In this document: piece after piece, positions 3,925 through 52,281 of the stretch
How positions within the stretch are numbered: position 1 is the stretch's first letter
Layout: every line of letters starts with the position of its first letter
Assembly: GCA_043821725.1 (NCBI GenBank)
Contig: JBDRCM010000006.1
Location: forward strand, 38,287 to 102,286
Length of the DNA stretch: 64,000 nt
Direction of reading: 5' to 3'
Source of the DNA: a bacterium
GTDB lineage: Bacteria > Patescibacteriota > Patescibacteriia > Magasanikbacterales > GWA2-37-8
The notes under the pieces: generated by a model
The model's input: the letters and a program-made list of their open reading frames with translations, nothing else
Databases searched by the model: none
Told to the model about the DNA's origin: nothing
Made by a program: the position numbers and the translations under genes

Positions 3925-4036
3925 TTAATTTTATTCCCAAACAAATCCTCCTTGGCACCCAAAATGAAACGCTAGCTCGCAGACATTATGCCTTTTGACC
4001 TGATACTCTGTGCTCTTGGCACAGGGAGGGGTTCAT
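3925..4036 (-). repeat. copy A (internally deleted) of the non-TIR structured repeat family ATGAACCCCTCC...TAATAAAA
   Basis: The reverse complement reads ATGAACCCCTCCCTGTGCCAAGAGCACAGAGTATCAGGTCAAAAGGCATAATGTCTGCGAGCTAGCG..TTTCATTTT. This is ~90% identical over about 60 nt to the copy at 50271. Confidence 0.6.
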
Positions 4037-4475
4037 TTAATAAAGATTTAATAATCATATAATTGAATTAAATCTCTAATTCCAATAAAAAATATATGTC
4101 AGAGATCAGAATACCGGGAAATTTTGATACGGAAAAGTCACAATACGCAGGTCAAGACCCTGAATATAAAAATAATAGTGTCATGCGGACAACTGACAAC
4201 AAAACGGTGTCATACAATATTTAAAAGATAAAGGCCTTTATGTTGTAATGGACGTGGATGAACCTGGCGTAAAAAGTTGTGCGTATAAAATTCATCCGGA
4301 TAAACTTATAAAAATGGAAGGAAAAAAATAAATCTTTTGAATTAAAAATTTTTTAATAAATATCATTAAGTCGCAAGACCTGCTCTTCCGGCCGTGTCAT
4401 AATGTTAGCCCATCAACTAAAAACATTTAACAAAAAACATTCCGCTGTAAAACGGAATGTTTTGGTTTGTTTCAA

Positions 4476-6277: not shown

Positions 6278-6433
6278 ATTCGTTATTTAATGAATGAATA
6301 AAAATATATTGGTAGTAAAGCACAGATGAGAATAGAGGTCAATATACCAACGCGCCTTAATATTAAAAAATAATAGATGCAAATAATCGCAAACAGTCGA
6401 AAATTTTAGTATTCAATAGTTGTCACTTTAAAA

Positions 6434-6595
6434 GGGTCCGTCACCAAATACCATTTCTACTGTAATTAATAAATTATGGCCAAAATCGTTTCAAAATTTC
6501 TCGGCTTATCTTACAGATAGGGCTCAAAATTTGTTCAACAATTTTGTCTCATAATTTATCAATTTCGCTACGAAAGCGCATTTGGCGACAGACCC
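6434..6595 (+). mobile_element. Tn3-like MITE copy 1 (162 bp) with 5-bp TSD TAAAA
   Basis: TIR GGGTCCGTCACCAAAT ... ATTTGGCGACAGACCC. TAAAA is present at 6429..6433 and 6596..6600. Confidence 0.75.
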
Positions 6596-6639
6596 TAAAA
6601 AGAAAAAACGCTTGAATTATTGCGTTTTTTCGTATTTTT

Positions 6640-6960
6640 TTGAAAAAAAATGATGAGGGCCCCCTGTATTAGAGATGATATAGGGAGCCAACATCTTCCC
6701 TATACAGGGGGTATTTTATTTTCTGCCAGCACAGCGCATCCTAGTAGAGTAGTCCTGCGCGTTTTCCGGTGGGACGAGCCGTTATTTCACAGACGTCTTC
6801 CAAGCTCTGCACGCCAGAAGAGCTGTAAAACCACCACGGTGCACCTTGACTCTCCTTCCTGTTGTCAGGACTTCTTCTCGGGGTACTTTCTCTTCCTCCT
6901 CGACTTCCTGTTTTTTTGTATTTCTTTGCCACTGTCTGAGCTCCCTTTTTTCCGATTGAG
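6640..6960. other. GC-rich ~320-bp segment between two MITE copies; candidate structured RNA or gene remnant
   Basis: Local GC is clearly above surrounding DNA. A long imperfect hairpin sits at 6657..6710 (CCCCCTGTAT...ATACAGGGGG). Only low-complexity, unconvincing ORFs are present (6650..7006 +, 6741..6932 -). Confidence 0.25.
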
Positions 6961-6967
6961 GTTAACA

Positions 6968-7202
6968 GGATCTGTCACCAAATACCATTTCTACTGCAAT
7001 TCATAAATTATAGCCAAAATCGTTTCAAAATTTCTTGGCTTATCTTACAGATAGGCCTCAAAATTTTTTATCAAGCGAAGCGAGAGAAAAGAAAAATGAT
7101 AATTTTTCTTTTCCGAGCGAGCGAAGATAACTATGGAATTATCAACGATTTTGTCTCATAATATATTAATTTCGTTGCGAAAGCGCATTTGGCGACAGAC
7201 CC
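6968..7202 (+). mobile_element. Tn3-like MITE copy 2 (235 bp) with perfect 5-bp TSD TAACA
   Basis: TIR GGATCTGTCACCAAAT ... ATTTGGCGACAGACCC. TAACA is present at 6963..6967 and 7203..7207. Its internal sequence is shared with the copies at 19827 and 47110. Confidence 0.8.
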
Positions 7203-7383
7203 TAACAGGATTTATAATATTTTACACTTAAAACACTAAAATGTCAACAGTAATAAACCCGACATTGCAACAAGCCACCCCACATTTATGCTTGCACACC
7301 AGGCAAAAATATGCTAAAATATACTCATTCATAAACTTGTCAGATCCAAATATTTATTCATTTTTAGCAAAAAATTTACTTAT

Positions 7384-7998
7384 ATGCACATAAGCTGGCT
7401 CGGACAAACATGCGTAAAAATACAGACAAAAAATATCAATGTTGACTCTACTATTGTTATAAATGCGTATAAACCAAAAAAAGGATCTTTTCCCCGCTAT
7501 TTCAGCCCTGAAATCGCTCTGTTTTCATCAGGAATGGATAATACTGCCACTTTATCGCAAAATCCTTTTGTCATCAGTACATTAGGCGAATTTGAAATGC
7601 AAGGCATTGTGATATATTCTCTTCCGGACGATGAAAATAATCGAATTTTTAAACTGGTCAGTGAGGGAATGACCATTGTCCATCTTGGCAAATTAAACAA
7701 AAATATAGAAAACAGCCGATTGGAAAAAATAATGAATCCTGATATTTTATTCATTCCGGTTGGAGGAAGGCCGAATTATTTGGAAAGAAAAATGGCTGCC
7801 TCTTTGGCAACGGCAATTGAACCGCGCATAATTATTCCTATTGGATTCAAATGCGACACAGATCCAGACTCCAAGCCGATTTCAATGTTTGTTGATGAAG
7901 CAGGCCTTAAGCCGGAAAATCAAACCAAAAAAATTATTATCAAAAAAAAGGACTTGCCTGCGGATGAAACCAAATTGATAGTTCTGGACAAGGAGTAA
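7384..7998 (+). CDS. metallo-beta-lactamase-fold hydrolase (UPF0173-like)
   Basis: The N-terminus MHISWLGQTCVKIQ matches the M.ITWLGHSCF.IE start of UPF0173/MBL-fold metal-dependent hydrolases. 204 aa. Confidence 0.5.
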   Translation: MHISWLGQTCVKIQTKNINVDSTIVINAYKPKKGSFPRYFSPEIALFSSGMDNTATLSQNPFVISTLGEFEMQGIVIYSLPDDENNRIFKLVSEGMTIVHLGKLNKNIENSRLEKIMNPDILFIPVGGRPNYLERKMAASLATAIEPRIIIPIGFKCDTDPDSKPISMFVDEAGLKPENQTKKIIIKKKDLPADETKLIVLDKE

Positions 7999-8018
7999 AA
8001 AGAACAAAGGAATTAAAT

Positions 8019-8462
8019 ATGAATAAACCGCGGAAAAAAAATAAACATAAATTAACCATCAGGCCGGAAAATCCAAGAGCCAAAGCATTGATGTGGATCA
8101 GCGTTATTCTTTTTACGTGCGTAATTACCATCTTGTGGGCATGGTCAGCCAAAATTCAGCTGTCCGGAGTTGATCTGTCTATCAGCCAAGAAAGCGAAAT
8201 TTTAAGAAACACGCAAGCGCAATGGGAAAAAATATTTGCTGAAAATGACGTAACTCTGCCTTCTTCGCCAACATCTTCGGCCATTACAGCACCAACTTCA
8301 TCCGCTATAGAATTAATTGAATTGGAAAAAAGTTTGCGCGACTTATTTGGAAAAATGAATTCAACCACTACTGCCAGCACAACCACAAACTTTGGATCCT
8401 TAACCAAGATAACGTCAACGACAACAACCAATACTTTGAAGGCATCAACTTCATCACAATAA
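8019..8462 (+). CDS. hypothetical membrane-anchored protein with Ser/Thr-rich C-terminus
   Basis: 147 aa. A basic N-terminus is followed by one TM helix (ALMWISVILFTCVITILWAW) and an S/T-rich tail. Confidence 0.4.
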   Translation: MNKPRKKNKHKLTIRPENPRAKALMWISVILFTCVITILWAWSAKIQLSGVDLSISQESEILRNTQAQWEKIFAENDVTLPSSPTSSAITAPTSSAIELIELEKSLRDLFGKMNSTTTASTTTNFGSLTKITSTTTTNTLKASTSSQ

Positions 8463-8494
8463 GTTTTCAATATTGAAAAAGTAAATTATTATTT

Positions 8495-10981
8495 ATGCTC
8501 AAGAAAATCATTAAAAACAAGGAAGCAAAAATGTCAGATCTGAATACAACAGGCGAAACCAACATTTCAATTGTTGATGAAATGAGAAAATCATATTTGG
8601 AATACGCCTTGAGCGTAATTGTTTCGCGCGCCTTGCCTGACGTAAGAGACGGCCTCAAGCCGGTGCACAGGCGCATACTGTATGCCATGTGGAATATCGG
8701 ATTAAGGCACAACGCAAAATTCAGAAAATCAGCCCATGTGGTTGGAGAAGTGATGGCAAAATACCATCCGCACGGAGATGCCGCCATATATGATTCATTA
8801 GTAAGAATGGCACAATATTTTTCAATGCGAGAACCGCTTATCCACGGCCAAGGAAATTTCGGATCAATGGATGGCGACCCTGCGGCGGCCATGCGATATA
8901 CTGAAACTAAATTAAGAACAGCGGCCGAAGAGATGCTTTTTGACATTGAAAAAGACACTGTTGACTTCAGGCCCAATTATGACGGCTCTCACAATGAACC
9001 GGCTGTACTGCCTGCAAAAATACCCAACCTTTTGCTCAATGGAACTACCGGAATAGCTGTGGGCATGGCCACTTCAATTCCTCCCCACAATCTAATTGAA
9101 TTGTGCCAAGGAGTAGTTAAGATTATTGACAAGCCAAACTGTTCAATTGATGAACTCACTGAAATAATTAAAGGCCCTGACTTTCCTACAGGTGGCATAA
9201 TATATAATAAAAAAGATATGCTGGCCGCTTTTGCCACAGGCAAAGGCGGAATTGTAGTGCGCGCAAAAACAAACATTGAAGAATTAAAAGATTCAAAATA
9301 CCGAATTATTATCAGTGAAATTCCATACATGGTGAATAAAGCAACGCTTATCGGCAAAATTGCGACCTTAGTTCAAGAAAAAAAGATAGAAGGGATAAAA
9401 GATTTGCGGGACGAATCAAATAAAGACGGCGTAAGAATTGTTATTGAACTTAAAAAGGACTCATATCCTAAAAAAATACTAAACCGGCTATTCCAATTAA
9501 CAGACCTGCAGACAACCTTTCATTACAATATGCTTGCTTTGGTTGATGAATGCCGCCAGCCGCGAATACTCAACTTGAAAACCGTGCTTGAAGAATTTAT
9601 CAAACATAGGCAGATTATAATAAAAAGACGCACAACATTTGATTTGTTAAAAGCCAAAGAGCGAGCTCACATACTTGAGGGCTTGAAAAAAGCATTGGAT
9701 AATATCAATAAAGTAATTAAAATAATTCAGCAGTCAAAAGACAAAGAGGAAGCTAAAGTAAACTTAATTAAACAATTCAAATTTTCCGACAAGCAGACAA
9801 CAGCCATTTTGGAAATGAAACTGCAGCAGCTTGCCAACATGGAGCGCAAAAAAATATTGGACGAACTTAGGGAAAAAATGATTCTGATAAAGGGTCTTGA
9901 ATCAATTCTTGCTTCTCAAAAAAAGATGATGAACATCATCAGGGCTGAAACAATTGAAATTGAAAAAAAGTATGGAAATCCAAGGCGGACGGAAATAATA
10001 ACGCGCGGAGTCAAGGACTTTAAAATGGAGGATCTTGTGCCAAATGAAGGAACAATAATTATGGTAACTGTGGATGGCTACATTAAACGTCTGCCAATTG
10101 ATACTTTCAAACAGCAGTTGCGCGGTGGCAAGGGCGTGATAGGACTCACTACCAAAGAAGAAGATAGCATAGACATGTTGCAAGCCACTAATACGCATGA
10201 CAATATTCTTTTCTTGACCAACCGAGGCCGTGTTTTCCAAATGATGGCATATGACATTCCTCAAAGTACGCGAACATCCAAAGGCCAAGCGCTTGTTAAT
10301 TTCCTATTGCTTGCTCCAAATGAGAAGGTAACTGCTATGATTGCCATGAGCGACATTTCCAATTCAAAATACCTTGTAATGGTAACTCAAAAAGGGATTA
10401 TCAAAAAAAGCGCCATTGAAGATTTCGCAAATGTGCGCAAGAGCGGTCTTATAGCTGTAAAACTCAAAAGTGAAGACAACCTTGAATGGGTAAAGCCATC
10501 GTGCGGAAAGGATGAAATAATTATTGCCACTAAAAAAGGGCAGGCAATAAGATTTCGGGAAAAAGACATACGCGCCATGGGTCGGACCGCAGCAGGAGTA
10601 AGAGGAATACGTCTAAAGGCAAATGATGAAGTTATTTGCATGGATGTGGTTGATCCGAAAAATAAAAATCTTGAACTTTTTACAATTTCTGAAAATGGAT
10701 TGGGCAAACGAACTCCACTTTCTCAATACAGGATTCAAGGCAGGGGAGGCAGTGGAATCAAGAGCTCAACAATTAGCGCAAAGACAGGGAATCTTGCCGC
10801 ATCCCGCGTATGCGACCATATGGAAAACAAAGATAGTGATCTTATGGTTATGTCCAACAAAGGACAGGTTATACGCCTGCCTTATAAGGCAATAAGCGTT
10901 TCAAGCCGAGCCACACAAGGAGTACGGCTTATGCGATTTAAAGCTGAAGGCGATAAAGTTACAACCGTCACAATACTTTAA
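8495..10981 (+). CDS. gyrA: DNA gyrase subunit A
   Basis: [37 protein letters not shown], and the C-terminal beta-pinwheel repeats are present. The true start may be the internal MSDLNTT at 8531. Confidence 0.9.
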
Positions 10982-11005
10982 AACACAACATTAAAAAATG
11001 TTATT

Positions 11006-11035
11006 AAAAACCCCGATTTCGCAATCGGGGTTTTT
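11006..11035. terminator. bidirectional intrinsic terminator between gyrA (+) and ftsH (-)
   Basis: AAAAACCCCGATTTCGCAATCGGGGTTTTT. An 8-bp GC stem is flanked by an A-run and a T-run. Confidence 0.7.
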
Positions 11036-11073
11036 AATTAGTATGTATGTTCCAAATCTTTTTTTGCTCTGCA

Positions 11074-12924
11074 CTAAACAATAATTTCCTGCAATTTATC
11101 TTCGTCCTTAAAAATCATTCCAATCTCGTCTTGTTCAATTGTTTCTTTTTCCAACAATATCTTTACCATTTTTTCCATTTTATCACGATGTCCTCTTACA
11201 ACCTGTCCGGCCTTTTCTTTTGCCTCGTTAATAATCCTAATAATTTCCTTGTCAATTTCTTCAGCTGTCTTGTCGCTATAATCGCGCTGTTCATGAATAT
11301 CTCTACCAAGGAAAATCATATCTTCATGCTTGCCAAAAGTGCGAGGTCCGAGCTTTGACATGCCATAGCGAGTGACCATATCCCGCGCTATTTCAGTTGC
11401 CCTTTGTAAATCACTGCAGGGCCCGGTGGAAATATCGTGAAAAATCAACTGTTCAACAACATATCCGCCTAAAATCATAGCAAGGTCATCACTAAAATGT
11501 TCAAAGGTATTATATCGCCTGTCTTCTGTTGGCATATTGAGAGTATATCCGCCAGCTCTTCCGCGTGAAATGATTGAAACCTTTCTTACCGGATCGCAGT
11601 TTGGTAAAAAATGACCCACAATGGCGTGTCCTGCTTCGTGGTAAGCGGTCATATTTTTTTCCTTTTCACTGATTACCCTGTGCTTTCTTTCCGGACCAAG
11701 CAATACTTTTTCAATGCTTTCCAAAATTTCATCTTGGCTGACTTTTTTCTTATTGCGCCTTACCGCTAAAATGGCCGCCTCATTAAGAAGATTTTCAAGA
11801 TCAGCACCATTAAACCCCGGGGTTCGCTCTGCAATTATGCGCATTGATACTTCACGATTTAAGGGCTTATTTTTAGCATGAATACTCAATATTTCCTCCC
11901 TATCTTTAATGTCAGGCATATCCAGAGTAACGCGCCTGTAAAAACGACCGGGTCTTAACAGCGCAGGATCCAGCACATCAGGCCTGTTCGTTGCGGCCAT
12001 TACTATAACACCAATATTCGGTTCAAAACCATCCATTTCCACTAAAATTTGATTAAGTGTCTGCTCGCGCTCATCATGTCCGCCTCCGAGTCCGGCGCCT
12101 CTGCGCCTGCCTACCGCATCAATCTCATCAATAAATACAATGGCTGGCGCAGCTTTTTTGGCCTTGCCAAATAAATCTCTTACGCGGGAAGCTCCAACGC
12201 CAACAAACATTTCAACAAATTCAGACCCTGACATATTAAAAAACTGTACGTTTGCCTGTCCGGCAACTGCCTTTGCCAGCAATGTCTTGCCTGTTCCGGG
12301 TGCGCCCATGAGTAAAACGCCTTTTGGTATTTTTGCTCCCATTGCATCAAATTTCTTTGGATCGCGCAAAAATTCAACAATCTCCTGTAATTCTTCTTTA
12401 GCTTCTTTTACTCCGGCAACATCATCAAATGTTTTTTTGTCTTTTTTTTCTTTGGGATCTGTCTGCTTGGCTGAGCTCTGTCCAAATCCCATAGCGCGAT
12501 TATTCATCCCCTGCACTCCACGGGACATAAAATAGAAGAAAAGAACAAAGATAAGCAAGGGCAAAAGTATGGGAAAAAGATTCGCAGCCCAAAACTTTGC
12601 CGAATTCTCATCTTTAATTTCAACATCCAGCTCAGCGCGCACTGTATCTGAAACACCGTAATTTTTCATAATGTCACCGAATGACTCATTGGCTTCTTTT
12701 TTCGCTTCTTGAATCTTAGTGCTTCCGTCTTTCATTTCCGCGCTTACCATATTTCCCTGCACAATAATTTTTTTGACCTTGCTTTCATTTATCAATGCAA
12801 CCATTTTGCCCATGCTTATCTCTTCTTTCTTTTTTCCTTCATCAAATTTTACCATGCTGAAAATGCCCGCTATGAGCAAAATCACGATGAATATTATAAA
12901 AAAATTTTTAAAAAAATTCTTCAT
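11074..12924 (-). CDS. ftsH: ATP-dependent zinc metalloprotease FtsH
   Basis: N-terminal TM region, Walker [29 protein letters not shown] region, and zinc site HEAGHAIVG. Confidence 0.9.
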
Positions 12925-12939
12925 AGCAAATAATTAAGA

Positions 12940-14256
12940 TTATTCGGCTTTTGCGCCCTTGTCAGTGGTGTTAGTGGTGTCAGTGGTGTTAGTGGTGTTA
13001 GTGGTGTCAGTGGTGTTAGTGGTGTCAGTGGTGTTAGTGGTGTTAGTGGTGTCCGGGCTTTCTGCGCCACTGCCAACGTCAACATTTTCATCTTCTTTCT
13101 TGTCATCCAGCTTTTCCCCTGTCTTATCGTTGGTTGGTTTTTCCTGCTTTATTTGTGGCTTCTTTGCTGTTATGTCCGGAAGCTTTAAACCAAGACGATG
13201 CTCGGGTGGCTCCAAAGAAACCACTTCAAACTCTCTTAAATCACCTATGTTAAATTCGTTCTTTATGCTTTCATTACCATTGGACACTTCTGAAATATGA
13301 GCAAGCCCATGAATTTCTTCGTCAAGAGCAACCATCAGCCCGAAGGGTTCTATTTTTATTATTTTTCCCTGAACTTTATCTCCGACTTTATATTTATCTT
13401 TAACTTTTTTCCATGGATCATCAACCAGTCGCTTGATTGACAAATATATTTTTGATTTGTCAAGCTGAATTATTTGCGCTTCTATATTGTCACCGACTTT
13501 CAAAACATCTCTTGGGTGGTCAATGCGCTTCCATGCAATTTCAGAAATATGAACAAGTCCTTCCAGTCCGACTCCGAACTTCACAAACGCTCCGAATGAA
13601 GTAAGAGCGCTGACTTCTCCCTCAATCTTGTTGCCGATTTTGTACGATTCAAGCACTGCTTTTTGCGAATCTTCCCAAACCGCCTTTTCTGAAACTATTA
13701 ATTTTTCCTCATTTTGATTGGCATCTATAATTTTAACTTCCAGGTCATTATTGATTAGTTCCTGTAATTTTTCCAAAATTCTAAGCTTATCGCCACCTGC
13801 CACTCGCGGATAATTGTCCGGCGACAGCTGGCTAACCGGCATAAATCCGGTTAAAGCATCAACCTGCATGATTAAACCGCCTTTGTTAGCTGCCACCACT
13901 CGTGATTTAACGGCTATGCCTTCATTCATGTATTTTTTCATATTTTCCCAAGCCCGTTTATAGCCGGCACTTCTAAAAGAAAGCTCCATCTCGCCATTTT
14001 CGTTTTCCAATTCCAAAACAGTGGCTTCAACTTTGTCGCCCACTTTTATTTCTGAATATTCCTTTGATTCTGTAAACAATTCACGACCGCGCACAACGCC
14101 GACCGTTAACCCTCTGATGTCCAATTTTATTGACCCCTTGTCAATTGAGATTACTTCGCACTCAACCACTTCATTAACTTTTGGAATGTCAACCTGATAT
14201 GACTCCAATAATGTTTGAAAGCTTGGCTGGTTGCTTGTTGGTACGTTTACATTCAT
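12940..14256 (-). CDS. rpsA: 30S ribosomal protein S1 (4 S1 domains) with a C-terminal (TTN/TTD)n low-complexity tail
   Basis: S1-domain motifs EGEVSALTSFGAFVKF and GLAHISEVS are present. The C-terminus reads ...SPDTTNTTNTTDTTNTTDTTNTTNTTDTTNTTDKGAKAE. Confidence 0.8.
   Translation of the reverse strand: MNVNVPTSNQPSFQTLLESYQVDIPKVNEVVECEVISIDKGSIKLDIRGLTVGVVRGRELFTESKEYSEIKVGDKVEATVLELENENGEMELSFRSAGYKRAWENMKKYMNEGIAVKSRVVAANKGGLIMQVDALTGFMPVSQLSPDNYPRVAGGDKLRILEKLQELINNDLEVKIIDANQNEEKLIVSEKAVWEDSQKAVLESYKIGNKIEGEVSALTSFGAFVKFGVGLEGLVHISEIAWKRIDHPRDVLKVGDNIEAQIIQLDKSKIYLSIKRLVDDPWKKVKDKYKVGDKVQGKIIKIEPFGLMVALDEEIHGLAHISEVSNGNESIKNEFNIGDLREFEVVSLEPPEHRLGLKLPDITAKKPQIKQEKPTNDKTGEKLDDKKEDENVDVGSGAESPDTTNTTNTTDTTNTTDTTNTTNTTDTTNTTDKGAKAE
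12961..13053. repeat. 9-bp tandem repeat (AGTGGTGTY x ~10) encoding the S1 TTN/TTD tail
   Basis: A direct tandem array is visible in the sequence, in-frame with rpsA. Confidence 0.85.
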
Positions 14257-14505
14257 AAATTTATTTATCTTCCATCTTTGCCTTCACTTTCGGAAATATG
14301 ACAGTAGCCAAATAGCCGTAGGAGGCAATGATTGATAACAAAAAAAGATGTTCTTATCCCCTTGTCCTGCAACCAATGGGTTGAAAGACAAACGGGTGTT
14401 TTTCACTATGGTGGAAAAACTTGTTTTTTAATTGTTTGTATTATATTATATATATTACCACATGTCAATAGAGCGCAATTAAAATATTTTCTTACGCTAA
14501 ATATG

Positions 14506-14806
14506 AACTCATGTAGAGTTATTCAACATAATGCGCTATTACTAACGAAATGACAAATGTTAAAAAATGTCTGTCATTCTGAATCCCGACCTAGTCGGGA
14601 CTTATCCCGACCTAGTCGGGACTTATCCCGACCTAGTCGGGATGAAGAATCCCTTAAATAATTCACTTGAATTAATTTGAATGACCAGAGGGATCCTTCG
14701 CGGAGTTTATCCTCGAGCGTAGCGAAGGGCTCAGGATGACAGGTGAAGGAATCAGGATGACAGGTGACACGCTCAAGATGACATAGTGGTAAACTCTGTA
14801 TGAGTT
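14506..14806 (+). mobile_element. MITE family 2, copy L (~300 bp) with TIR AACTCATGTAGAGTT / AACTCTGTATGAGTT
   Basis: The terminal inverted repeats are visible. Internally there are 3 tandem 21-bp units CCCGACCTAGTCGGGACTTAT (14585..14641) and repeated TCAGGATGACAG motifs. It is an inverted near-copy of the element at 17039..17264. Confidence 0.7.
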
Positions 14807-14830
14807 CTATAACTAAAAAATACATCTTTT

Positions 14831-16180
14831 ATGAAATATTTTTTACTACGATTTCTACCAGCACTGTGTTTTGTATTGATTATAGGCGGGTGTAATACGA
14901 ATAGAAATACAGTCATTATAAAACCACCTGCAAGCGCAGTATCTAACACAAACGCAAATCCAACAGCCAATGTAAACATAACTGTTGTTGCCAAATCCAC
15001 TACCTTAAATTCAACAACAACTCCAATTGCAAAAACAATTGATAAATATGATCTTTGGTCAAAAGGCGTTAAACTGCGTGGCGCCAACATCTATCAAAGG
15101 CGGGTCTATCCGGATTTAGACGGCAACTCATTCGGTCCGGGTTTGGTTGGCCCTGTTTATACTCAAAAAGATTTTGATGGTTTATCCGCTTTAGGTGCCA
15201 ACTGGGTGCAAATTGAACATCCCGGCCTATATTCTGAAAAACCACCTTATAGATTAGATGGCGAAGTGCAAATCAATCTTGATAATCTCATTAGCATGGC
15301 TTCAAAAGCAAATATGTTTGTTACAATCGCTTTTCGAACAGGCCCGGGCAGATCTGAATTCACTTTTTATGATGAGGATGATGACGATTGGTTTGATGAC
15401 AGTTATAGAAATGACAAAGTATGGAAGGATGAAACCGCCCAGCAGGCATGGGCTGACATGTGGGAGTATACAGCTGAAAGATACAAAAACAATCCAATAG
15501 TTGTTGGCTATAATCTTATGGTTGAACCGAACGGCGAGTCCAGAGCGTTTTCAGAAGAGCTATGGGAGCCAGATGAATTTTATCCAAAATACAAAAATTC
15601 CATGGCTGATTGGAATCAAATGTATCCAAAGTTGGTTTCTGCAATCAGAAAAAACGACAAGAATACGCCGATTTTAGTCGGACATATGGCTTACAATTCC
15701 GTAAATTGGCTTCCATACTTAAATGATGTAAACGGCTCAAAAATAGTTTGGATAGCGCACCAATATGAACCATACGCATATACGCATGACGCGCAATCCA
15801 ATACAAAATACCCGTCAACATTTAAATGGTATGGAGAAAAAATTATTTTAGATAAGAACTATTTGAAAACGATTTACGATCTGGCGAAAAATACAGCAAC
15901 TAAAAATAGCAGACCGCTCGCAATTGATGAATTTGGTGTTTACAGATTTAAAGAAGGCGCTTCCCAATTTCTTGAAGATAGCATGAATCTTATGGAAGAG
16001 CGCGGTACCAATTATTGCATATGGTCATGGGATTCGGCGCAAAGGGCTAAAAACTTTCCTGAAGACGATCAATTTGATTTTACAAGAGGCGCCAACAAAA
16101 AAAATCATGAACCGGTTCAAAATCCGTTGCTGGATGTTGTAAAAAAATACTGGCAAAAAAATTCTGCCAGGCCTTTTTAA
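14831..16180 (+). CDS. glycoside hydrolase family 5 (cellulase-like) lipoprotein
   Basis: A lipoprotein signal (LIIGGC) is present. GH5 features are GANWVQIEHPG, a catalytic acid context GYNLMVEPNGE (NEP), and a nucleophile context IDEFGV. Confidence 0.6.
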   Translation: MKYFLLRFLPALCFVLIIGGCNTNRNTVIIKPPASAVSNTNANPTANVNITVVAKSTTLNSTTTPIAKTIDKYDLWSKGVKLRGANIYQRRVYPDLDGNSFGPGLVGPVYTQKDFDGLSALGANWVQIEHPGLYSEKPPYRLDGEVQINLDNLISMASKANMFVTIAFRTGPGRSEFTFYDEDDDDWFDDSYRNDKVWKDETAQQAWADMWEYTAERYKNNPIVVGYNLMVEPNGESRAFSEELWEPDEFYPKYKNSMADWNQMYPKLVSAIRKNDKNTPILVGHMAYNSVNWLPYLNDVNGSKIVWIAHQYEPYAYTHDAQSNTKYPSTFKWYGEKIILDKNYLKTIYDLAKNTATKNSRPLAIDEFGVYRFKEGASQFLEDSMNLMEERGTNYCIWSWDSAQRAKNFPEDDQFDFTRGANKKNHEPVQNPLLDVVKKYWQKNSARPF

Positions 16181-16202
16181 CAATTCTTAAACCACTGTAA
16201 TT

Positions 16203-16264
16203 TTTATTAACGCAACGTAGCGAGGATTTTGCTGAGCGGGATCTTGGCACAGGGAGGGGTTCAT
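16203..16264 (-). repeat. copy B (short, ~62 nt) of the ATGAACCCCTCC...GCGTTAATAAAA repeat family
   Basis: The reverse complement reads ATGAACCCCTCCCTGTGCCAAGATCCCGCTCAGCAAAATCCTCGCTACGTTGCGTTAATAAAA. It abuts the TGA stop of the GT2 gene. Confidence 0.6.
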
Positions 16265-17004
16265 AATTCATTTGTGCGAGGAGGCAAATAGTTGGTTTGC
16301 CTTCCAAAACACATCTTGACAAAATTCCAAGCAAGAACTGCCAGTTTTATGTTAAGTTTGAATCTGCGCGATGATACAAAATACCGCAATGAGCAATCAA
16401 CCTTGATTTTACCAAACTCACTTAATCTGCGGGTCAAGTCAGCGTCTTCTCCAAATTTTAAATTCTCATCAAACCCGCGTGTTTTATCATATAATTCTTT
16501 TTTAAAAACCATGCCATTGCCGATTGGGCCCACTTTATTGAATGAAGCTATTTTGGCAAAAAACAATATGGGTCTAAAAAAAACAACGCAAGCCGCGTTC
16601 TTCAAAATAGATCCATCATAAAAATAAAACTGTCCTCCAAGACAGGCAAGATTTTCATCCTCCTCAAATCGCTTAAGCGCCTGTTGTAAAAAATCACAAG
16701 GAAGATTAGTATCAGCGTCTATCTGTACTATGTATTTGCCTTGCGCGACTTCAGCGCCTTTTTTTCTAGCGCTTCCAACGCCTCTTTTATCTTCCTTTAC
16801 CAAACTTGCTCCTTTTGAACGCACTATTTGATTGCTCATGTCTGTTGAGCCGTTGTCAACCGCTATTATGTCATAATTAAAATCGCCTTGCTGATTTTTC
16901 GCGTGTTCAAGACAAGATCCAATATATTTCTCTTCATTATATAGAGGCACGACTATGCTGAACAATATCTCATCATTTAAATTATTGTGAGCGTTAATTT
17001 TCAT
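16261..17004 (-). CDS. family 2 glycosyltransferase
   Basis: FSIVVPLYNEEKYIGSCLEHAKNQ...DIIAVDNGSTD and the DxD context QIDADT are typical of a GT-A fold GT2. Confidence 0.7.
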   Translation of the reverse strand: MKINAHNNLNDEILFSIVVPLYNEEKYIGSCLEHAKNQQGDFNYDIIAVDNGSTDMSNQIVRSKGASLVKEDKRGVGSARKKGAEVAQGKYIVQIDADTNLPCDFLQQALKRFEEDENLACLGGQFYFYDGSILKNAACVVFFRPILFFAKIASFNKVGPIGNGMVFKKELYDKTRGFDENLKFGEDADLTRRLSEFGKIKVDCSLRYFVSSRRFKLNIKLAVLAWNFVKMCFGRQTNYLPPRTNEL

Positions 17005-17038
17005 AAATTGAACTGAATTTTTTGTAAACCTATAATTT

Positions 17039-17264
17039 AACTCATACAGAGTTTAGCACTATGTCATTCTGAACCCTTCGCTCGCTCGAGGATAAACTCC
17101 GCGAAGAATCCCTTAGATAACGCGAGAGGGCGCGGAGTTTACCCTTGAAGGAAGTGAAGGACTCCCTCAGGATGACAGGACAGATACTCAGGATGACAGA
17201 CATTTTTTAACATTTATCATTTCGCTAGTAATAGCGCACTATGTTGAATAACTCTATATGAGTT
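17039..17264 (-). mobile_element. MITE family 2, copy R (~226 bp), inverted relative to copy L
   Basis: TIR AACTCATACAGAGTT / AACTCTATATGAGTT. Its arms are reverse complements of both arms of the copy at 14506..14806, e.g. ATGTCTGTCAT(C/T)CTGA and CTTCGCGGAGTTTATCCTCGAGCG. Confidence 0.7.
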
Positions 17265-17416
17265 GGTTTACTATTGCCTTAGCAGTTTGATATTTCTTTT
17301 GCTTTTTAATATTTTATCACGACATCTCTATTATGATAAGGCCTTGAACAAATGGCCAAACTAAAAAACAAAAATACCTGTCTTCCTGACAGGTCTCATA
17401 CCATCTAAATACAAAA

Positions 17417-19810: not shown

Positions 19811-19826
19811 ATTATTTTGCTAATAA

Positions 19827-20089
19827 GGGTCTGTCGCCAAATACCATTTCTACTGCAATTGATAAATTATGACCAAAATCGTTTCAAAATTTCTTGGCTT
19901 ATCTTACAGATAGGCCTCAAAATTTTTTATCAAGCACTTAATATTAGGCCAAACGGTAAAGAATATCTCATATATTTTTTTCGCGCTGCCACTTCGCCGC
20001 GTCTGCGAAAAAGATATATGACATATTCTTCATCTTTATTACACTGCGTTAGTTAATTTCACTATGAAAGAGCATTTGGAGACAGACCC
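19827..20089 (+). mobile_element. Tn3-like MITE copy 3 (263 bp), inserted between the adk stop and the map start
   Basis: The left TIR GGGTCTGTCGCCAAAT is intact. The right TIR is degenerated (ATTTGGAGACAGACCC). The flanking 5-mers are AATAA and ACTAA, a 4/5 match. Confidence 0.7.
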
Positions 20090-20090
20090 A

Positions 20091-20759
20091 CTAAACAACG
20101 CCCAAAAGTATTTTTTCAATCAACAGTTCAACTTCGTCAATGGTTTTACTGCCATCAACTTTTTTCAGTACTCCCAATTGTCGGTAGTAATTCAGTATCT
20201 CAATCATTGCATTGTTTCCCTGTTTTTCAATTCTTCTTCTTATTATATCTTCAGAATCATCTTGCCGTTCAACAAGATTATTATTGCACTTTGGGCACGT
20301 TGCTAATTCTTTTGTTGATTCAAGCCAAGGAATTAATTCTTTGCATTGCTCGCACACACGCCTTTTTGTTAGACGGTTGAATGACTCTTCATCAGACAAA
20401 CTTACTTCCAATGCAATAAGTTCACTTTCCATCTTTATCTCTTTGATATGTTGCTGATACTTTTTTGCCTGCTCAATGTTGCGAACGGCTCCGTCCAAAA
20501 CAACTCCGCGCCCTTCATTAAAAATTTTATCCATTTCCTGAAATGCCAGATCATATATAAGCCAATCAGGAACTAACTTACCCTGTTTCATTTCCAAAAG
20601 AGCTTTTTTTTGCTTTTCATTGGCATTGCCATTGGCCTGAAGCGCCCGCAACAAATCACCGGTTGAAATATGGCCGTAATTGTATTTTTCAGCTATTTTT
20701 TTGGCTTGAGTTCCCTTGCCACTGCCCGGAGATCCTATCATTATGATTATTTTTTTCAT
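20091..20759 (-). CDS. adk: adenylate kinase with a zinc-binding lid
   Basis: MKKIIIMIGSPGSGKGTQAKKIAEKYNYGHISTGDLLR. The lid cysteines are CEQC...CPKC. Confidence 0.9.
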   Translation of the reverse strand: MKKIIIMIGSPGSGKGTQAKKIAEKYNYGHISTGDLLRALQANGNANEKQKKALLEMKQGKLVPDWLIYDLAFQEMDKIFNEGRGVVLDGAVRNIEQAKKYQQHIKEIKMESELIALEVSLSDEESFNRLTKRRVCEQCKELIPWLESTKELATCPKCNNNLVERQDDSEDIIRRRIEKQGNNAMIEILNYYRQLGVLKKVDGSKTIDEVELLIEKILLGVV

Positions 20760-31603: not shown

Positions 31604-31623
31604 ATTTGAAATTCGCACTATAA

Positions 31624-31677
31624 GGATCTGTCACCAAATACCATTTCTACTGCGAAAGCGCATTTGGCGATAGACCC
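31624..31677 (+). mobile_element. Tn3-like MITE copy 4 (54-bp minimal version: fused TIRs only) with perfect 5-bp TSD TATAA, inserted between rpsJ and rplC
   Basis: GGATCTGTCACCAAATACCATTTCTACTGCGAAAGCGCATTTGGCGATAGACCC. TATAA is present at 31619..31623 and 31678..31682. Confidence 0.8.
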
Positions 31678-31680
31678 TAT

Positions 31681-31733
31681 AAAACAAAAACTAGGAACAA
31701 TGACGCTATTAACAATAGTGGCGTTGTTCCTAG
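31681..31733 (-). terminator. intrinsic terminator downstream of rpsJ (minus strand)
   Basis: The minus strand reads CTAGGAACAA-(21 nt loop)-TTGTTCCTAG followed by TTTTTGTTTT. Confidence 0.6.
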
Positions 31734-36325: not shown

Positions 36326-38929
36326 ATGAAATTACAAAAATTAAAATATCTGGCAAAAATTTTAATCCCCTGTGTGATGCTATGGTGTGCAAGCATAAGC
36401 GCCCTCCCCATACAAACAGCACAAGCAAAACAAACTTACGGCAGTCCTGTAGCATGCACTTTGTTAAAAGCCGGCGATAATGTAAAAGTGAACGAACTGA
36501 ACAAGCCGGCAATATGGAATATTGGTGAGGATGGATTGTTAAGGCCATACCCGGACGGCAACATTTTCAAAAGCTGGTTTAGCAATGAAAAATATTCAGG
36601 CCATTACAAACTTATTACGGAAAGTTGTATAAACACATACAACACAGCCACAAACTTTCCAATTTATGTTAATTTTAGGCCTGCTTCATATGTCATAAAA
36701 AGAATGTATTATGACCAGCTTTATGTTGTTCTTCCAAATAATACAAAAGCGCCCATAACATGGCAGGCCGCTGAAGCACTTTATGGGAAAAAATTCAAAG
36801 TAATGGAAGTTAAATTGTATTTATGGGACAACTATTATAATGATTCCTCTGAAATATCTGGCTCTGACCCCATGCCTCATGCCGGAAGCATAGTAAAAAA
36901 AGACAATAAAAAATATTATGTAAATGAAAATGGCACGCTTAGTGAAATAAATACCAATGCCTTTATACAAAATGAATTTAAAGAGCAATTCGCGCGCCAG
37001 CTGTCCAACACATACTCTTCTTCTGTATCATTCGGAACTTCAATCTCAAATAAAATTGAAACTATTGTAAGTAAAACGCAAAACAAAAATATAACAACCA
37101 ATCCTGTCTCTTCCAATTCATCCTCAGGAGCAACTTCATCCAATTCAACAAGCTCGGGAAGCTCTGCATCTTCAGGAACAGGAACAAACGCTCCTTCAAC
37201 AAACACCGGCTCAACAAGCAGTGGCTCTTCAAGCACAGGGTCATCTTCAAGCAACACCAATTCAACCGGCAGTAGCACTACCGGCAGTGGCACTTCAACA
37301 GGAAGTTCAACCAACACAACCGGAAGCCAAACAACATCAACCAACATTTCAACTGGAACCGGTTCAACTGGAACGGGAACGGGCTCATCCTCAACAGGAT
37401 CATCAAGTTCAGGAAGTGGAACCACATATTATGTGCGCACAGATGGAGGTAGTGCCAGTCAATGCAATGGACTTTCCAACTCCGCATACCCGGGCACAGG
37501 CACCAACCAAAACTGCGCTTGGAAGCATCCGTTTGTAGCGCTTCCACCGGAAGGCACAGCGCGAATTTCAGGCGGGGATACTTTAATGATAGCAAACGGA
37601 TCTTACAAAATGGGATATGGAGCGTCTGTCGGAGCTGAAAACTGCAGTGAATACTGGCCATGGGACTGCCACATGCCCGCTATACCTTCAGGCACAAGTT
37701 CTGCAAATAAAACCAGAATACTTGGAGAATCATGGGATAGCGGATGCTCTACAAAACCACAGCTTTACGGCGCTGAAAGGTCATATATGATTTTTGACTT
37801 GCGAGGCACTAATAATATTGAAATGCAGTGTTTGGAAATAACAGACAGGTCAGCTTGCGTTGAATTCCACAGCGGAGGCAACGCGTGCAATAGAGACAAC
37901 TACCCGTATGGCAATTGGGCATCAGTCGGGATATGGGCTGAAGATTCATCAAACGGTCTTTTGAAAAATATTGATGTGCACGGACTTGCAGGCCGTGGAT
38001 TGATGGCAGGCCGACTGACCGACTGGACAATTGAAGACACAAAAATTCAAGGAAACGGATGGGCCGGCTGGGACGGAGATATTGACGGCAGTGATTCCAA
38101 CAGCGGAACGATTACTCTAACGCGCGTTAATATTGATTGGAATGGATGCGGAGAAACATACCCAGGAAGACTGCCAACCGGTTGTTGGGGACAAAGCGCC
38201 GGAGGATATGGCGACGGACTAGGAACAGGCGAAACAGGAGGAAATTGGATAATACAGGATTCAACATTTTTGCATAATACTTCAGACGGACTTGATCTGT
38301 TGTACCACAGAAGCGGAGGTACAATTACCATCAACAGAGTTCATGCCGAGGGCAATGCAGGCAATCAAGTAAAAACAACAGGAAACGCTCAAATCACTGA
38401 CAGCGTGATAGTTGGCAATTGCGCGTATTTTGAAGGCAAATCATTCACGCACAATGTTGATGCCTGCAGAGCGCTTGGTAATGCTGTATCATTAAATCTT
38501 ACAGGCGCAACCACTCCGGCATTATTCTATAACAATTCCGTTTACAGCCAAGGAGACGGGCTTTTGCTTGTTGATGGAGGAGGAACAATTAAAGCGCGCA
38601 ACAATATTTTTTACGCGGGAGTTGATTACTGGCAAAATTATGAAAATTCATTTTACTTCTATACTGAAAGCAACACTACACTGGATGGCGACTATAATCT
38701 GGTATATAACGCCAAGGACAACAGCAATTACTGCGCCACAGGTTCTCATAATTTATGCACCTCAAATCCTCAATTTAATTCAACATCTGCAAACAGTTTT
38801 AATTTAAGATTGAACGCGACAAGCCCGGCCATTGATGCGGGCACGACAGCTATCACAACAATTGATTTTACAGGCGCAAGCAGGACAAAAGGAAGTTCAC
38901 CTGATATGGGAGCTTATGAAATTAATTAA
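36326..38929 (+). CDS. large secreted protein: N-terminal ~230-aa domain, Ser/Thr/Gly-rich linker, and a C-terminal ~480-aa right-handed parallel beta-helix (pectin-lyase-fold) domain ending DMGAYE
   Basis: Signal peptide (ILIPCVMLWCASISALPIQTAQA). The linker runs 37080..37430 (NSSSGATSSNSTSSGSS...). Beta-helix rungs show repeated N/D/G motifs (GNGWAGWDGDIDGSDSNSG, NNSVYSQGDGLLLVDGGG). It is a paralogue of the next gene. Confidence 0.55.
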   Translation: MKLQKLKYLAKILIPCVMLWCASISALPIQTAQAKQTYGSPVACTLLKAGDNVKVNELNKPAIWNIGEDGLLRPYPDGNIFKSWFSNEKYSGHYKLITESCINTYNTATNFPIYVNFRPASYVIKRMYYDQLYVVLPNNTKAPITWQAAEALYGKKFKVMEVKLYLWDNYYNDSSEISGSDPMPHAGSIVKKDNKKYYVNENGTLSEINTNAFIQNEFKEQFARQLSNTYSSSVSFGTSISNKIETIVSKTQNKNITTNPVSSNSSSGATSSNSTSSGSSASSGTGTNAPSTNTGSTSSGSSSTGSSSSNTNSTGSSTTGSGTSTGSSTNTTGSQTTSTNISTGTGSTGTGTGSSSTGSSSSGSGTTYYVRTDGGSASQCNGLSNSAYPGTGTNQNCAWKHPFVALPPEGTARISGGDTLMIANGSYKMGYGASVGAENCSEYWPWDCHMPAIPSGTSSANKTRILGESWDSGCSTKPQLYGAERSYMIFDLRGTNNIEMQCLEITDRSACVEFHSGGNACNRDNYPYGNWASVGIWAEDSSNGLLKNIDVHGLAGRGLMAGRLTDWTIEDTKIQGNGWAGWDGDIDGSDSNSGTITLTRVNIDWNGCGETYPGRLPTGCWGQSAGGYGDGLGTGETGGNWIIQDSTFLHNTSDGLDLLYHRSGGTITINRVHAEGNAGNQVKTTGNAQITDSVIVGNCAYFEGKSFTHNVDACRALGNAVSLNLTGATTPALFYNNSVYSQGDGLLLVDGGGTIKARNNIFYAGVDYWQNYENSFYFYTESNTTLDGDYNLVYNAKDNSNYCATGSHNLCTSNPQFNSTSANSFNLRLNATSPAIDAGTTAITTIDFTGASRTKGSSPDMGAYEIN

Positions 38930-45182: not shown

Positions 45183-45866
45183 ATGGACAATATAGAATTA
45201 GACAAGTTGGTTTCTGAATTGCAAATATCAAAAGATCAAATATTGCGTGAGGAAGCAGAAATGTTATTTTTAGATCAGCTTGGAAAAAATAGAATATCTT
45301 CAAAACTGGTTTTTTATGGTGGAACTGCTTTGCGGTTAGCATATAATTCCCCCCGTTTCTCTGAAGACATAGATTTACTAATGATTGGCAATGTATCACT
45401 ATCAGAGCTTAAAATTTTTTTGAACACAATTCTTAAAAAGAACGATAATTGGAAGTTGATTGATATAAAGAACAAGCGCCAGATATTATTTGCCTTGATA
45501 AATATCAAAGATGAAAAATTAAAACATAATTTTTCAATTAAGATAGAGATTCATAAACCCAAGAAAAAAATAGATGTTGAATATAATTTGGCCTCAATCC
45601 AGAGCCCAACAAGTATAGCTCAACCCCTGTTATTAGTACCGAGCATAGAAGCAATGAAAGAATTAAAAATAGCAACAATTAAAGACAAAAAAAAAGCGCG
45701 AGATATATTTGATTTATGGTTCATCTTCCAAAAAATGCGAGAACCCTTTGTTATAGGGCAAAAAGTTAAATACAAAGAAAATGAGTTTAAAAATGAATTA
45801 CAAGTTTTTTTACCCAAAAAATATTATCCGCTAGTAAAACAATTGTATGAACAAGTTAGTGAGTAG
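45183..45866 (+). CDS. abiEii: AbiEii/AbiGii-family nucleotidyltransferase toxin (DUF1814)
   Basis: LVFYGGTALRLAYNSPRFSEDIDLLMIGN is the hallmark AbiEii motif. 227 aa. Confidence 0.7.
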   Translation: MDNIELDKLVSELQISKDQILREEAEMLFLDQLGKNRISSKLVFYGGTALRLAYNSPRFSEDIDLLMIGNVSLSELKIFLNTILKKNDNWKLIDIKNKRQILFALINIKDEKLKHNFSIKIEIHKPKKKIDVEYNLASIQSPTSIAQPLLLVPSIEAMKELKIATIKDKKKARDIFDLWFIFQKMREPFVIGQKVKYKENEFKNELQVFLPKKYYPLVKQLYEQVSE

Positions 45867-46422
45867 AATAAAAAGGATACCGAGAATAACCTTTAATTAT
45901 AATGACTTAAAAAAAATTACCGATCTTGAGGACGGTAGTTTGCGAGTCGCTGTTTTTCGGTTGATAAAAAGCGGAGCAATAACAAGAATAAGCAAAGGTA
46001 TTTATACTACTGATATTTCTAAAGTTGATTGGGAAATCTTTGCTGTCCAGAATTATGAACCCAGCTACCTTTCTTTTGAATGGGTGTTGGGCAAATATGG
46101 TGTGTTGAGTCAAAAGCCATATAATTTAACTTTGGCGACTAGTAGACAAACTAAGATAATTAATACAGTTCATAATATTATTTCCTATCATCATCTACAA
46201 ACAAAAATGTATTGGGGTTATGTAAAAAAGAATGGGTATCTGGAAGCAGACTTGGAAAAGGCGTGGCTAGATTTGGCATATTTATCTTTAAATGGCTATA
46301 CAAAGTTTGATTGCCAAGAAATGAATTTATCTTTGCTGAATAAAAATAAAATAAAAAAATATTTAAAAAAAATAGGGATAAAAAAATTATCCAATTTGGT
46401 TTTAAGCACAGGAATGATTTAG
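45847..46422 (+). CDS. abiEi: AbiEi-family antitoxin-like winged-HTH protein
   Basis: RVAVFRLIKSGAITRISKGIYT matches the AbiEi N-terminal wHTH. It overlaps abiEii by 20 nt. The gene order (toxin first) is inverted relative to canonical AbiE. Confidence 0.5.
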   Translation: MNKLVSRIKRIPRITFNYNDLKKITDLEDGSLRVAVFRLIKSGAITRISKGIYTTDISKVDWEIFAVQNYEPSYLSFEWVLGKYGVLSQKPYNLTLATSRQTKIINTVHNIISYHHLQTKMYWGYVKKNGYLEADLEKAWLDLAYLSLNGYTKFDCQEMNLSLLNKNKIKKYLKKIGIKKLSNLVLSTGMI

Positions 46423-46938: not shown

Positions 46939-47109
46939 CACCTCCCCCCGGAGTCGAACACATCGACTGCCCCGTAGCAACCCCGGTCTTTCCGACTGCC
47001 GACAAGGGTTGCTTCATTTTTTATAATCCGCGTTTGCGCTTTGCGCGATAATGCCGTATCATAATATACAACATTTGATATTGAATCTGATGACATAAAT
47101 ATCTAATAC

Positions 47110-47344
47110 GGGTCTGTCGCCAAATGTGCTTTCGTAGCGAAATTGATAAATTATGAGACAAAATTGTTGATAATTCCATAGTTATCTTCGCTCGCTCGGA
47201 AAAGAAAAATTATCATTTTTCTTCTCTCTCGCTTCGCTTGATAAAAAATTTTGAGGCCTATCTGTAAGATAAGCCAAGAAATTTTGAAACGATTTTGGCC
47301 ATAATTTATTAATTGCAGTAGAAATGGTATTTGGTGGCAGACCC
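47110..47344 (-). mobile_element. Tn3-like MITE copy 5 (235 bp, reverse orientation) with perfect 5-bp TSD AATAC
   Basis: GGGTCTGTCGCCAAATGTGCTTTCG ... AGTAGAAATGGTATTTGGTGGCAGACCC. AATAC is present at 47105..47109 and 47345..47349. Confidence 0.8.
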
Positions 47345-47399
47345 AATACGCACATCATCAGCCATAAGTCCACATTAAATTAATTGCTAACCCACTAAT

Positions 47400-52237: not shown

Positions 52238-52281
52238 TTAACCCTCCTGTGCAATACAAGTATTTGTATATTTGCCTGTAT

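Follow-up and report, generated by a model that had tools for sequence, protein, structure and literature searches.

A composite-like bracket of two inverted MITE-like elements around a GH5/GT2 gene pair in a Magasanikbacteria genome

Transposable elements of the miniature inverted-repeat type (MITEs) are known to bound composite structures in bacteria, for example, the TIME-COMPs and the integron mobilization units (IMUs) of Enterobacteriaceae (PMC13367494) and the MITE-flanked integrons of Acinetobacter (PMC6382973). The IMU composites are 2,160-2,799 bp long and carry inverted copies; some of them lack flanking repeats, yet were moved experimentally, and the defining feature of the TIMEs (miniature elements with inverted repeats, derived from Tn3) is the presence of Tn3-family terminal repeats of about 38 nt that start with GGGG (PMC13367494). 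This class is the closest architectural match to a structure in the stretch of 64,000 nucleotides analyzed here (contig JBDRCM010000006.1 of assembly GCA_043821725.1; Magasanikbacterales, Patescibacteriota), which is called the window in the following. Two elements, L and R, form a bracket of 2,759 bp (14506-17264) in the order R-GT2-GH5-L, with a glycosyltransferase gene (GT2) and a glycoside hydrolase gene (GH5) as the only genes between them, in convergent orientation.

L and R are two inverted copies of a single discrete element, which is non-coding and carries a terminal inverted repeat at either end (Table 1; the copies are AACTCATRYAGAGTT-bounded). They are related by three inverted arms, namely 14506-14582/17188-17264 (77 nt, 94% identity), 14773-14806/17039-17072 (34 nt, 91%) and 14689-14719/17083-17113 (31 nt, 97%; extended by blastn to 53 nt at 92%), and pairwise alignment showed that the homology is bounded exactly by the 15-nt termini, with unrelated flanks outside. 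The outermost (head) ends of L and R agree in 14 of 15 positions and the inner (tail) ends are identical; within a copy, the two ends are complementary in 13/15 (L) and 14/15 (R) positions. The end motif AACTCATRTAGAGTT, with up to two mismatches allowed, occurs at exactly four sites in the 64 kb, which are the four element ends, against a chance expectation of 0.25, and four sites were reached in none of 100 shuffles. Each terminal repeat is also a small hairpin (AACTC-N5-GAGTT). Thus, two copies of one element bound a cargo, and the outermost repeats are intact.

A first-pass annotation of the window had described 15-bp terminal inverted repeats on both elements, which were said to be reverse complements of each other, had quoted example strings from them and tandem 21-bp hairpin units from the left copy, and had placed a convergent GH5 lipoprotein and GT2, together with a short copy of a third repeat family, in the space between. 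All of this was recovered: the four ends, the three arms, every quoted string, the tandem units (in L only), the two genes with their Pfam matches and a lipobox-like signal, and the short family-3 copy.

Table 1. Positions of L and R, their parts, the bracketed genes and the nearest outside signals in the window.
Feature	Position	Strand	Remarks
Element L	14506..14806	+	301 nt; from the head end: terminal repeat, private head of 47 nt, hairpin mosaic as the centre, private tail, second terminal repeat
L head terminal inverted repeat AACTCATGTAGAGTT	14506..14520	+	end-motif search; itself a hairpin with a 5-bp stem, AACTC-N5-GAGTT
Three tandem 21-nt hairpin units ATCCCGACCTAGTCGGGACTT	14583..14645	+	L only; tandem detection gave 14583-14642, 2.9 copies, 100% matches
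Right half of the core unit shared across phyla, GATCC-TTCGCGGAGTTTATCCTCGA-GCGTAGCGAAGGGCTCAGGATGACA	14689..14741	+	in L
21-nt periodic repeat, 2-3 copies of TCAGGATGACAG	14724..14783	+	in L; self-comparison and tandem detection
L tail terminal inverted repeat AACTCATACAGAGTT	14792..14806	-	identical to the R tail repeat
Element R	17039..17264	-	226 nt; runs from head to tail along the - strand; centre of two core halves head-to-head, giving a long hairpin
R tail terminal inverted repeat AACTCATACAGAGTT	17039..17053	+	end-motif search
R head terminal inverted repeat AACTCATATAGAGTT	17250..17264	-	end-motif search
GH5-family glycoside hydrolase	14831..16180	+	449 aa; PF00150, E 2.4e-23
Short, internally deleted repeat-family-3 copy	16202..16264	-	its head adjoins the GT2 stop codon and overlaps it; fills the convergent spacer
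GT2 glycosyltransferase	16261..17004	-	247 aa; PF00535, E 6.9e-26
S1 promoter, sigma-70-type TTGACA-17-TATAAT	14440..14468	-	12/12 consensus; intact, 38 nt outside the L head
MgtE_N terminator-like hairpin	17376..17394	-	intact; lies about 110 nt beyond the R head

The two copies have a common shell, which consists of the 15-nt end plus a 47-nt head on one side and a tail of about 25 nt on the other, and a common insertion point within it; their centres are different. Core-derived stretches make up 14689-14741 in L and 17062-17179 in R, and the shared centre piece reads GATYC-TTCGCGGAGTTTAYCCTYGA-GCGAAGCGAAGGGCTCAGRATGACA. As single-stranded DNA, both elements fold strongly in comparison with shuffled controls (L, -52.7 kcal/mol, z -6.0; R, -34.5 kcal/mol, z -4.8). 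They contain only spurious open reading frames (ORFs), none of which, including an ORF of 83 aa in L, matched Pfam or NCBIfam. Neither L nor R matched a covariance model of Rfam 15, whether at the gathering threshold or with E<=10, with the exception of one chance-level match to a miRNA model (21 bits against a cut-off of 85 bits). With 301 and 226 nt and no coding capacity, both copies are within the size range of MITEs (below about 600 bp).

The likeness to the TIME-COMPs and IMUs lies in the presence of two non-coding copies of 200-300 nt with terminal inverted repeats around a cargo of a few kb, in the inverted orientation, which is the common and stable form in that class, and, for the IMUs, in the overall size (2,759 bp versus 2,160-2,799 bp) and the missing flanking direct repeats. 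The differences are, however, considerable. The 15-nt ends read AACTCAT... and are unrelated to the GGGG-type repeats of about 38 nt, and thus a Tn3-derived origin was rejected; no cognate transposase is known and a transposition footprint is absent; and the cargo is a chromosomal, host-like pair of carbohydrate enzymes in a genome of the candidate phyla radiation (CPR) instead of a plasmid-borne resistance gene.

Three further types of elements were considered. The classical MITEs, for example, the Correia elements, RUP, Nezha and MITEAba12 (see PMC6382973), are likewise small, non-coding, strongly folding and intergenic and have terminal inverted repeats. In contrast to them, L and R have no target-site duplication, just two copies are known and the window contains no parent insertion sequence (IS). 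The bodies of classical MITEs are confined to one lineage, whereas the body here is a mosaic, the main module of which is shared across phyla. Bacterial interspersed mosaic elements (BIMEs) and REPINs are mosaics of repetitive extragenic palindromic (REP) hairpins in Proteobacteria; REPs are species-specific, are linked to REP-associated tyrosine transposases (RAYTs), start with a conserved 5' GTAG and lack an outer shell of terminal repeats. L and R resemble them as intergenic mosaic arrays of short hairpin units of variable number and order, but none of these REP features was seen in L or R, and an origin of this type is unsupported. The palindrome-associated transposable elements (PATEs) that are derived from IS200/IS605 have a target motif of 4-5 nt 5' of the left end and no true terminal inverted repeats. 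The absence of a target-site duplication, the hairpins at both ends and the strand-asymmetric structure are common to PATEs and to L and R, but the 5' flanks of the two copies (ATATG versus AAACC) differ in either orientation and true terminal inverted repeats are present, so that an IS200/IS605-type origin was also rejected.

More unusual than the bracket is the occurrence, in L and R, of a core with a cross-phylum distribution inside lineage-specific shells. The 20-nt core pattern TTCGCGGAGTTTAYCCTYGA was found in at least 120 stretches in JGI metagenome contigs (loci L014-L133), and the GC content of the contigs among the matches listed ranges from 0.39 to 0.67. Conservation among the matches listed extends beyond the query, at 70% or more over the 25 nt that follow the pattern downstream, and the commonest complete unit among them measures 94 nt, with TGTCAYNCTGAG and CTCAGNNTGACA as its boundaries. 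In the left hairpin of this unit, pairing is kept by compensatory changes (one pair is CG in 7, GC in 7 and UA in 5 cases); the right stem contains many G-U pairs, with the consequence that one strand folds better than the other. Protein labels on four core contigs point to Chloroflexia, Ktedonobacteraceae, Sedimentisphaerales (Planctomycetota) and Syntrophales (Thermodesulfobacteriota), so that, with the Magasanikbacteria's own phylum, the core is present in at least four phyla, the others being Chloroflexota, Planctomycetota and Thermodesulfobacteriota. In contrast to this wide distribution, the core signature CTCAGRRTGAC or its complement had one match in about 250 kb of DNA from Magasanikbacteria relatives, and within the window it lies inside L and R only. 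The core units are often found between further inverted repeats, which belong to several unrelated classes (41 of the 86 listed, compared with 15 of 80 in a control with displaced flanks), and the plan of a shell around a core, as in L and R, recurs in the flanked metagenome units.

An orientation bias of the core units toward neighbouring ORFs was absent from the 124 metagenome instances listed. Therefore, a DNA repeat is favoured over a regulatory RNA, and a role of the core as a cis-regulatory RNA was rejected. A blastn comparison of the 51-nt core module with the PLSDB plasmids gave no match, no Rfam family corresponds to it, and searches of the literature with nucleotide strings and with peptide strings from its spurious ORFs retrieved no description. 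The translations of the core module resemble what we take to be common motifs of spurious hypothetical proteins in environmental genomes, and by this presumed likeness its wide distribution may have been noticed informally before. L and R might, as a tentative and on balance unlikely extension, represent an undescribed cross-phylum class of non-autonomous elements, in which a 94-nt unit (TGTCAYNCTGAGCGAAGCGAAGNNTCT...AGAYYCTTCGCGGAGTTTAYCCTYGAGCGAAGCGAAGGGCTCAGNNTGACA), with stems that are kept by compensatory changes and about 45 nt that are nearly invariant, lies between unrelated lineage-specific inverted repeats, and of which the CPR pair would have captured and relocated surface-glycan genes. 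If this were true, the core would either move between phyla and nest in local MITEs or itself confer transposability. Its conservation across 39-67% GC and at least four phyla points to either an inter-phylum spread of non-coding DNA or a constraint on it.

The cargo has a history of its own. The N-terminus of GH5 carries a lipobox-like signal, LIIGGC, as read from the sequence, and the protein is distant from solved endoglucanases (best E 3e-12). The GT2 family is narrow (32 proteins at E<=1e-20), and its few labelled members are from Magasanikbacteria. The nearest GH5 homologues, which come from different samples, have 72% (locus L002) and 69% (L141) identity, and in both loci a GT2 homologue (48% and 45%, respectively) is adjacent and convergent, with overlapping genes in L002 and a spacer of 46 nt in L141. 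The occurrence of the GH5-GT2 pair in other contexts, for which the first-pass annotation had proposed a search, was thus found in two loci with different neighbours. The convergent spacer in L141 holds a plain terminator hairpin where the window has the family-3 copy, and L002 has a gene for a GH114 hydrolase 61 nt upstream of GH5. Neither contig carries a copy of the L/R repeat: the gap upstream of GH5 in L002 is too small for one, and the available L141 sequence reaches 39 nt upstream of GH5. As relatives with 69-72% identity in GH5 have the convergent pair and no repeat copy on the available DNA, the comparison of sequences indicates that the pair existed before the bracket. The pair has changed its neighbourhood over the history of the group, because distant GT2 orthologues (50-51%) terminate arrays of T4SS_pilin-domain genes and have no GH5 beside them. 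In three other Magasanikbacteria loci (L138, L139 and L140), the GT2 orthologue follows an array of 8-10 genes with this domain (PF18895), and this position suggests a role of GT2 in the modification of pilins or surface proteins.

The tails of the elements are 24-34 nt from the start codons of GH5 and GT2. An outward sigma-70-like promoter was not found between L and GH5 or between R and GT2, and the donation of a promoter by the element was therefore rejected. The distinct composition of the cassette to which the first-pass annotation had looked was not seen: in GC content, GC content at third codon positions, codon usage and tetranucleotides, the cassette coincides with the median of the window genes, and by composition GH5 and GT2 have no signature of foreign origin in comparison with these genes.

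The gene order around the bracket was compared with that of relatives. Homologues of the S1 gene at 55-73% identity are mostly from Candidatus Magasanikbacteria (Patescibacteria), and at the MgtE_N locus three relatives with 72-75% aa identity were used, L135 (a 211-kb NCBI contig), L136 (an ENA contig) and L134. In L135 and L136 (MgtE_N 72-73%), the order is ribosomal-protein operon > SecY > Adk > Map > RuvX > MgtE_N >, followed by < GyrA < small protein < metallo-beta-lactamase (MBL)-fold protein and then by > S1 > FtsH; GH5, GT2 and the repeat are absent from the space between MgtE_N and GyrA. The closest assembly, L134 (MgtE_N 75%), has retained the upstream part, and it has no GH5, GT2 or repeat in the approximately 640 nt from MgtE_N to the end of the contig. 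In the window, the order is Map > RuvX > MgtE_N > (R) GT2 > < GH5 (L) > S1 > FtsH, continued by < GyrA < small protein < MBL and two family-1 repeats. Compared with L135 and L136, the gene-order change spans 7384-14256, with the GyrA-small-MBL and S1-FtsH blocks swapped, and the bracketed pair lies exactly at the new MgtE_N|S1 junction, for which there is no counterpart in any relative. Two of the three new junctions carry repeats, MgtE_N|S1 the L/R element (family 2) and the one upstream of MBL family 1; the third, FtsH|GyrA (10984-11073), is a clean bidirectional terminator free of repeats.

From the terminator of MgtE_N to the promoter of S1, the DNA specific to this lineage consists of the R-GT2-GH5-L block and short spacers. 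Since L135 and L136 have no insert at this site and L134 is also free of GH5, GT2 and the repeat, the whole block appears, from these alignments, to be lineage-specific at MgtE_N|S1. The spot is variable within the group, because the closest assembly (one metagenome-assembled genome, MAG, comprising L011, L134 and L140) has other genes downstream of MgtE_N as well as upstream of GyrA. It should be noted that the 3' end of the S1 gene (12942-13076) contains a 9-nt tandem repeat, which encodes a low-complexity tail of the TNTTDTT type; this tail is missing from the S1 proteins of the relatives, the matches of which stop near residue 365.

The explanation that we favour, with a probability of about one half, is that MITE-like copies flank a resident or relocated GH5/GT2 pair, and that movement of the whole as a unit is not shown by any trace. 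L and R would be two copies of a non-autonomous, MITE-like repeat with a private shell around a swappable hairpin mosaic, the main piece of which would be the module shared across phyla. The two intergenic spaces that flank an older, conserved, host-like convergent pair would each hold one copy, and in this lineage the pair would have come to a rearranged, variable junction downstream of the ribosomal-protein/Map/RuvX/MgtE_N cluster. One copy would have landed beside the pair, and the second would have arisen by short-range transposition or by duplication to the other side. The product would be a composite in structure, intact at all four ends, that could be moved by a matching transposase acting in trans. 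The structure of the element argues that it is or was mobile, and the architecture of a MITE-bounded, composite-like unit is plausible, with its mechanism unproven.

Several observations weigh against this explanation. Known copies of the element number two, both in the window, and the terms 'family' and 'mobile' are derived from structure. The additional copies that the first-pass annotation had envisaged were not found: the head pattern AACTCATNNAGAGTTATTCAAC had no exact match in the GTDB representative genomes, in viral contigs or in the JGI metagenomes, blastn of L against phage records gave no match, and nhmmer with head and tail profiles as well as blastn-short with the whole elements detected no copies besides L and R, either in the window or in the retrieved loci (999,024 bases in the nhmmer search). 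Neither copy has a target-site duplication, which is a hallmark of MITEs. Direct repeats that abut L, R or the composite were sought under five schemes, which included each of the two elements by itself, the exchange of flanks that inversion or intramolecular replicative transposition would produce, and the composite, and in comparison with a null distribution from intergenic DNA all of them were at chance level (P ~0.3); the lone candidate is a 3-nt TAT at L, obtained when its terminal repeat is lengthened by one base (uncorrected P 0.03). A transposase or autonomous partner was not found among the large ORFs of the window, the candidates for which turned out to be Laminin_G_3, RmuC, NYN, AbiEii and similar proteins. 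Furthermore, by our own estimate, two random insertions would fall within 2.8 kb of each other in 64 kb with a chance of about 9%, and therefore the two copies are probably not independent. The location of the block exactly at the gene-order change fits a joint event equally well.

Such a joint event could have been a true composite transposition, in which R-GT2-GH5-L moved as a unit into the MgtE_N/S1 junction by the action of a trans-acting transposase on the outermost head repeats. This is unlikely on the present evidence, in spite of a number of features in its favour. The outermost ends are intact and nearly identical and the inner ends identical, the lineage-specific DNA between terminator and promoter is little more than the block, and the precedent of the IMUs shows that MITE-bounded inverted composites of similar size are mobilisable, some of them without flanking repeats (PMC13367494). 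In addition, L002, in which the pair is next to GH114, comes from the same sample as L136, which has the ancestral order, and since the two are also similar in GC content (0.364 versus 0.362) and coverage (4.5 versus 5.6), it is plausible, though not shown, that in one organism the pair is located elsewhere and the MgtE_N locus is in the ancestral state. However, the outer flanks of the composite (...AAATATG and GGTTTAC...) match in 1 nt only (P 0.33), so that a footprint of unit transposition is lacking, a second copy of the R-GT2-GH5-L unit was not present in any collection searched, the window encodes no transposase, a compositional signature is absent, and at least one further rearrangement would be needed anyway, because no relative has the MgtE_N|S1 junction. 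Thus, of the composite-transposon-like, mobilisable cassette that had been proposed, the four intact ends, the inverted bracket and the lineage-specificity of the block stand, whereas a duplication, a second unit, a transposase and a foreign composition were not found; mobilisability is compatible with these negative results, but a positive footprint of movement as a unit is absent. The designation as a 'MITE family' fared similarly, as size, lack of coding capacity and terminal repeats agree with it but the missing target duplication does not, and it is too simple, because in this element a private shell encloses a hairpin module that is shared across phyla. Of the two observations that the first-pass annotation had named as speaking for two independent insertions, conservation of the pair without the repeats in relatives was found, whereas independent duplications were not demonstrable, neither at the single elements nor outside the composite.

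The bracket could also be the scar of the events that swapped the GyrA-small-MBL and S1-FtsH blocks: one resident copy would have made an inverted second one by intramolecular replicative transposition, or recombination between copies would have inverted or reshuffled the segment. Repeats at two of the three new junctions agree with this, as do the inverted orientation, the close spacing and the lack of ordinary duplications, which are left by intramolecular replicative transposition (the IS26 mechanism, PMC13367494). Nevertheless, we regard it as quite doubtful, because the predicted relation between the flanks (outer L equal to inner R and the reverse) was not seen (P ~0.3), the FtsH|GyrA junction is a clean terminator, and the repeats at the other two junctions belong to different families. 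That the elements are instead non-mobile, cis-acting leaders or regulatory hairpin arrays of GH5 and GT2 is improbable. Each element has the same orientation relative to its own gene: the tail is near the start codon, the sense strand is the 'top' strand of the core, which pairs better, with G-U pairs favouring one strand, and without a promoter between element and gene, the transcripts would include the element. But, once the copies are inverted and the genes convergent, agreement in orientation amounts to one outcome with a 50% chance, and the metagenome core instances are unbiased toward ORFs, the relatives have the same pair without elements and Rfam contains no matching model. Lastly, the source is a MAG, the contig of which might have been mis-joined at repeats, and short reads may not fix the orientation of a 2.2-kb segment between inverted repeats. 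Such an artefact is very improbable: the centres of L and R differ and their shared stretches are only 77, 53 and 29 nt long with 92-97% identity, which assemblers can read through, the flanking promoter and terminator signals are intact, and the FtsH|GyrA junction is free of repeats.

A search of the full-text literature retrieved no paper that describes MITEs in Patescibacteria or the candidate phyla radiation. The genomes of this group are small, and here two repeat families are located at the breakpoints of a gene-order change near the ribosomal-protein cluster. If the bracket were mobilisable, it would offer a route for the shuffling of cell-surface carbohydrate genes in organisms that depend on contact with a host.

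At least three families of structured repeats occur in the window. Family 1 (6423-6603, 6957-7210, 19816-20097, 31613-31685, 47103-47345 and 52271-52369) has the ends GGGTCTGTCGCCAAAT, conserved arms and a variable centre, in which different hairpin inserts are found at one central point, and it thereby mirrors the pattern of L and R. Its long forms carry a hairpin insert of 76 nt (GCGAAGCGAGAG...CGAGCGAGCGAAG), which the short form lacks. The copy at 19816 has a different insert and fills the Map|Adk spacer, which is an empty site of 17 nt in L134; hence, repeat insertion has occurred in this lineage. Two direct family-1 copies enclose a GC-rich stretch of about 300 nt (6604-6956) as a second bracketed segment, which had no match in Rfam and contains only short odd ORFs (one of them basic, 63 aa, on the - strand).

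Family 3 (3977-4037, 16202-16264, 50270-50420, 52548-52715 and 54051-54190) has the head ATGAACCCCTCCC and the tail CTCGCTACGNTGCGTTAATAAAA, with modular, GC-rich hairpins between them, and a hairpin insert is common to family 1 and some of these copies. In the copy between GH5 and GT2, the head ATGAACCCCTCCCTGTGCCAAGA matches those at 4014, 50271 and 52549, and the tail matches 52674-52715.

Elsewhere in the window, two adjacent paralogous genes of 867 and 866 aa (36326-38929 and 38964-41564), with 73-88% DNA identity over long stretches, represent a tandem duplication. An ORF pair of low GC content (45183-46422; 0.30-0.31 compared with 0.38 for the window), which includes a protein of the AbiEii toxin family and adjoins the family-1 repeat at 47103, may be a small acquired island.

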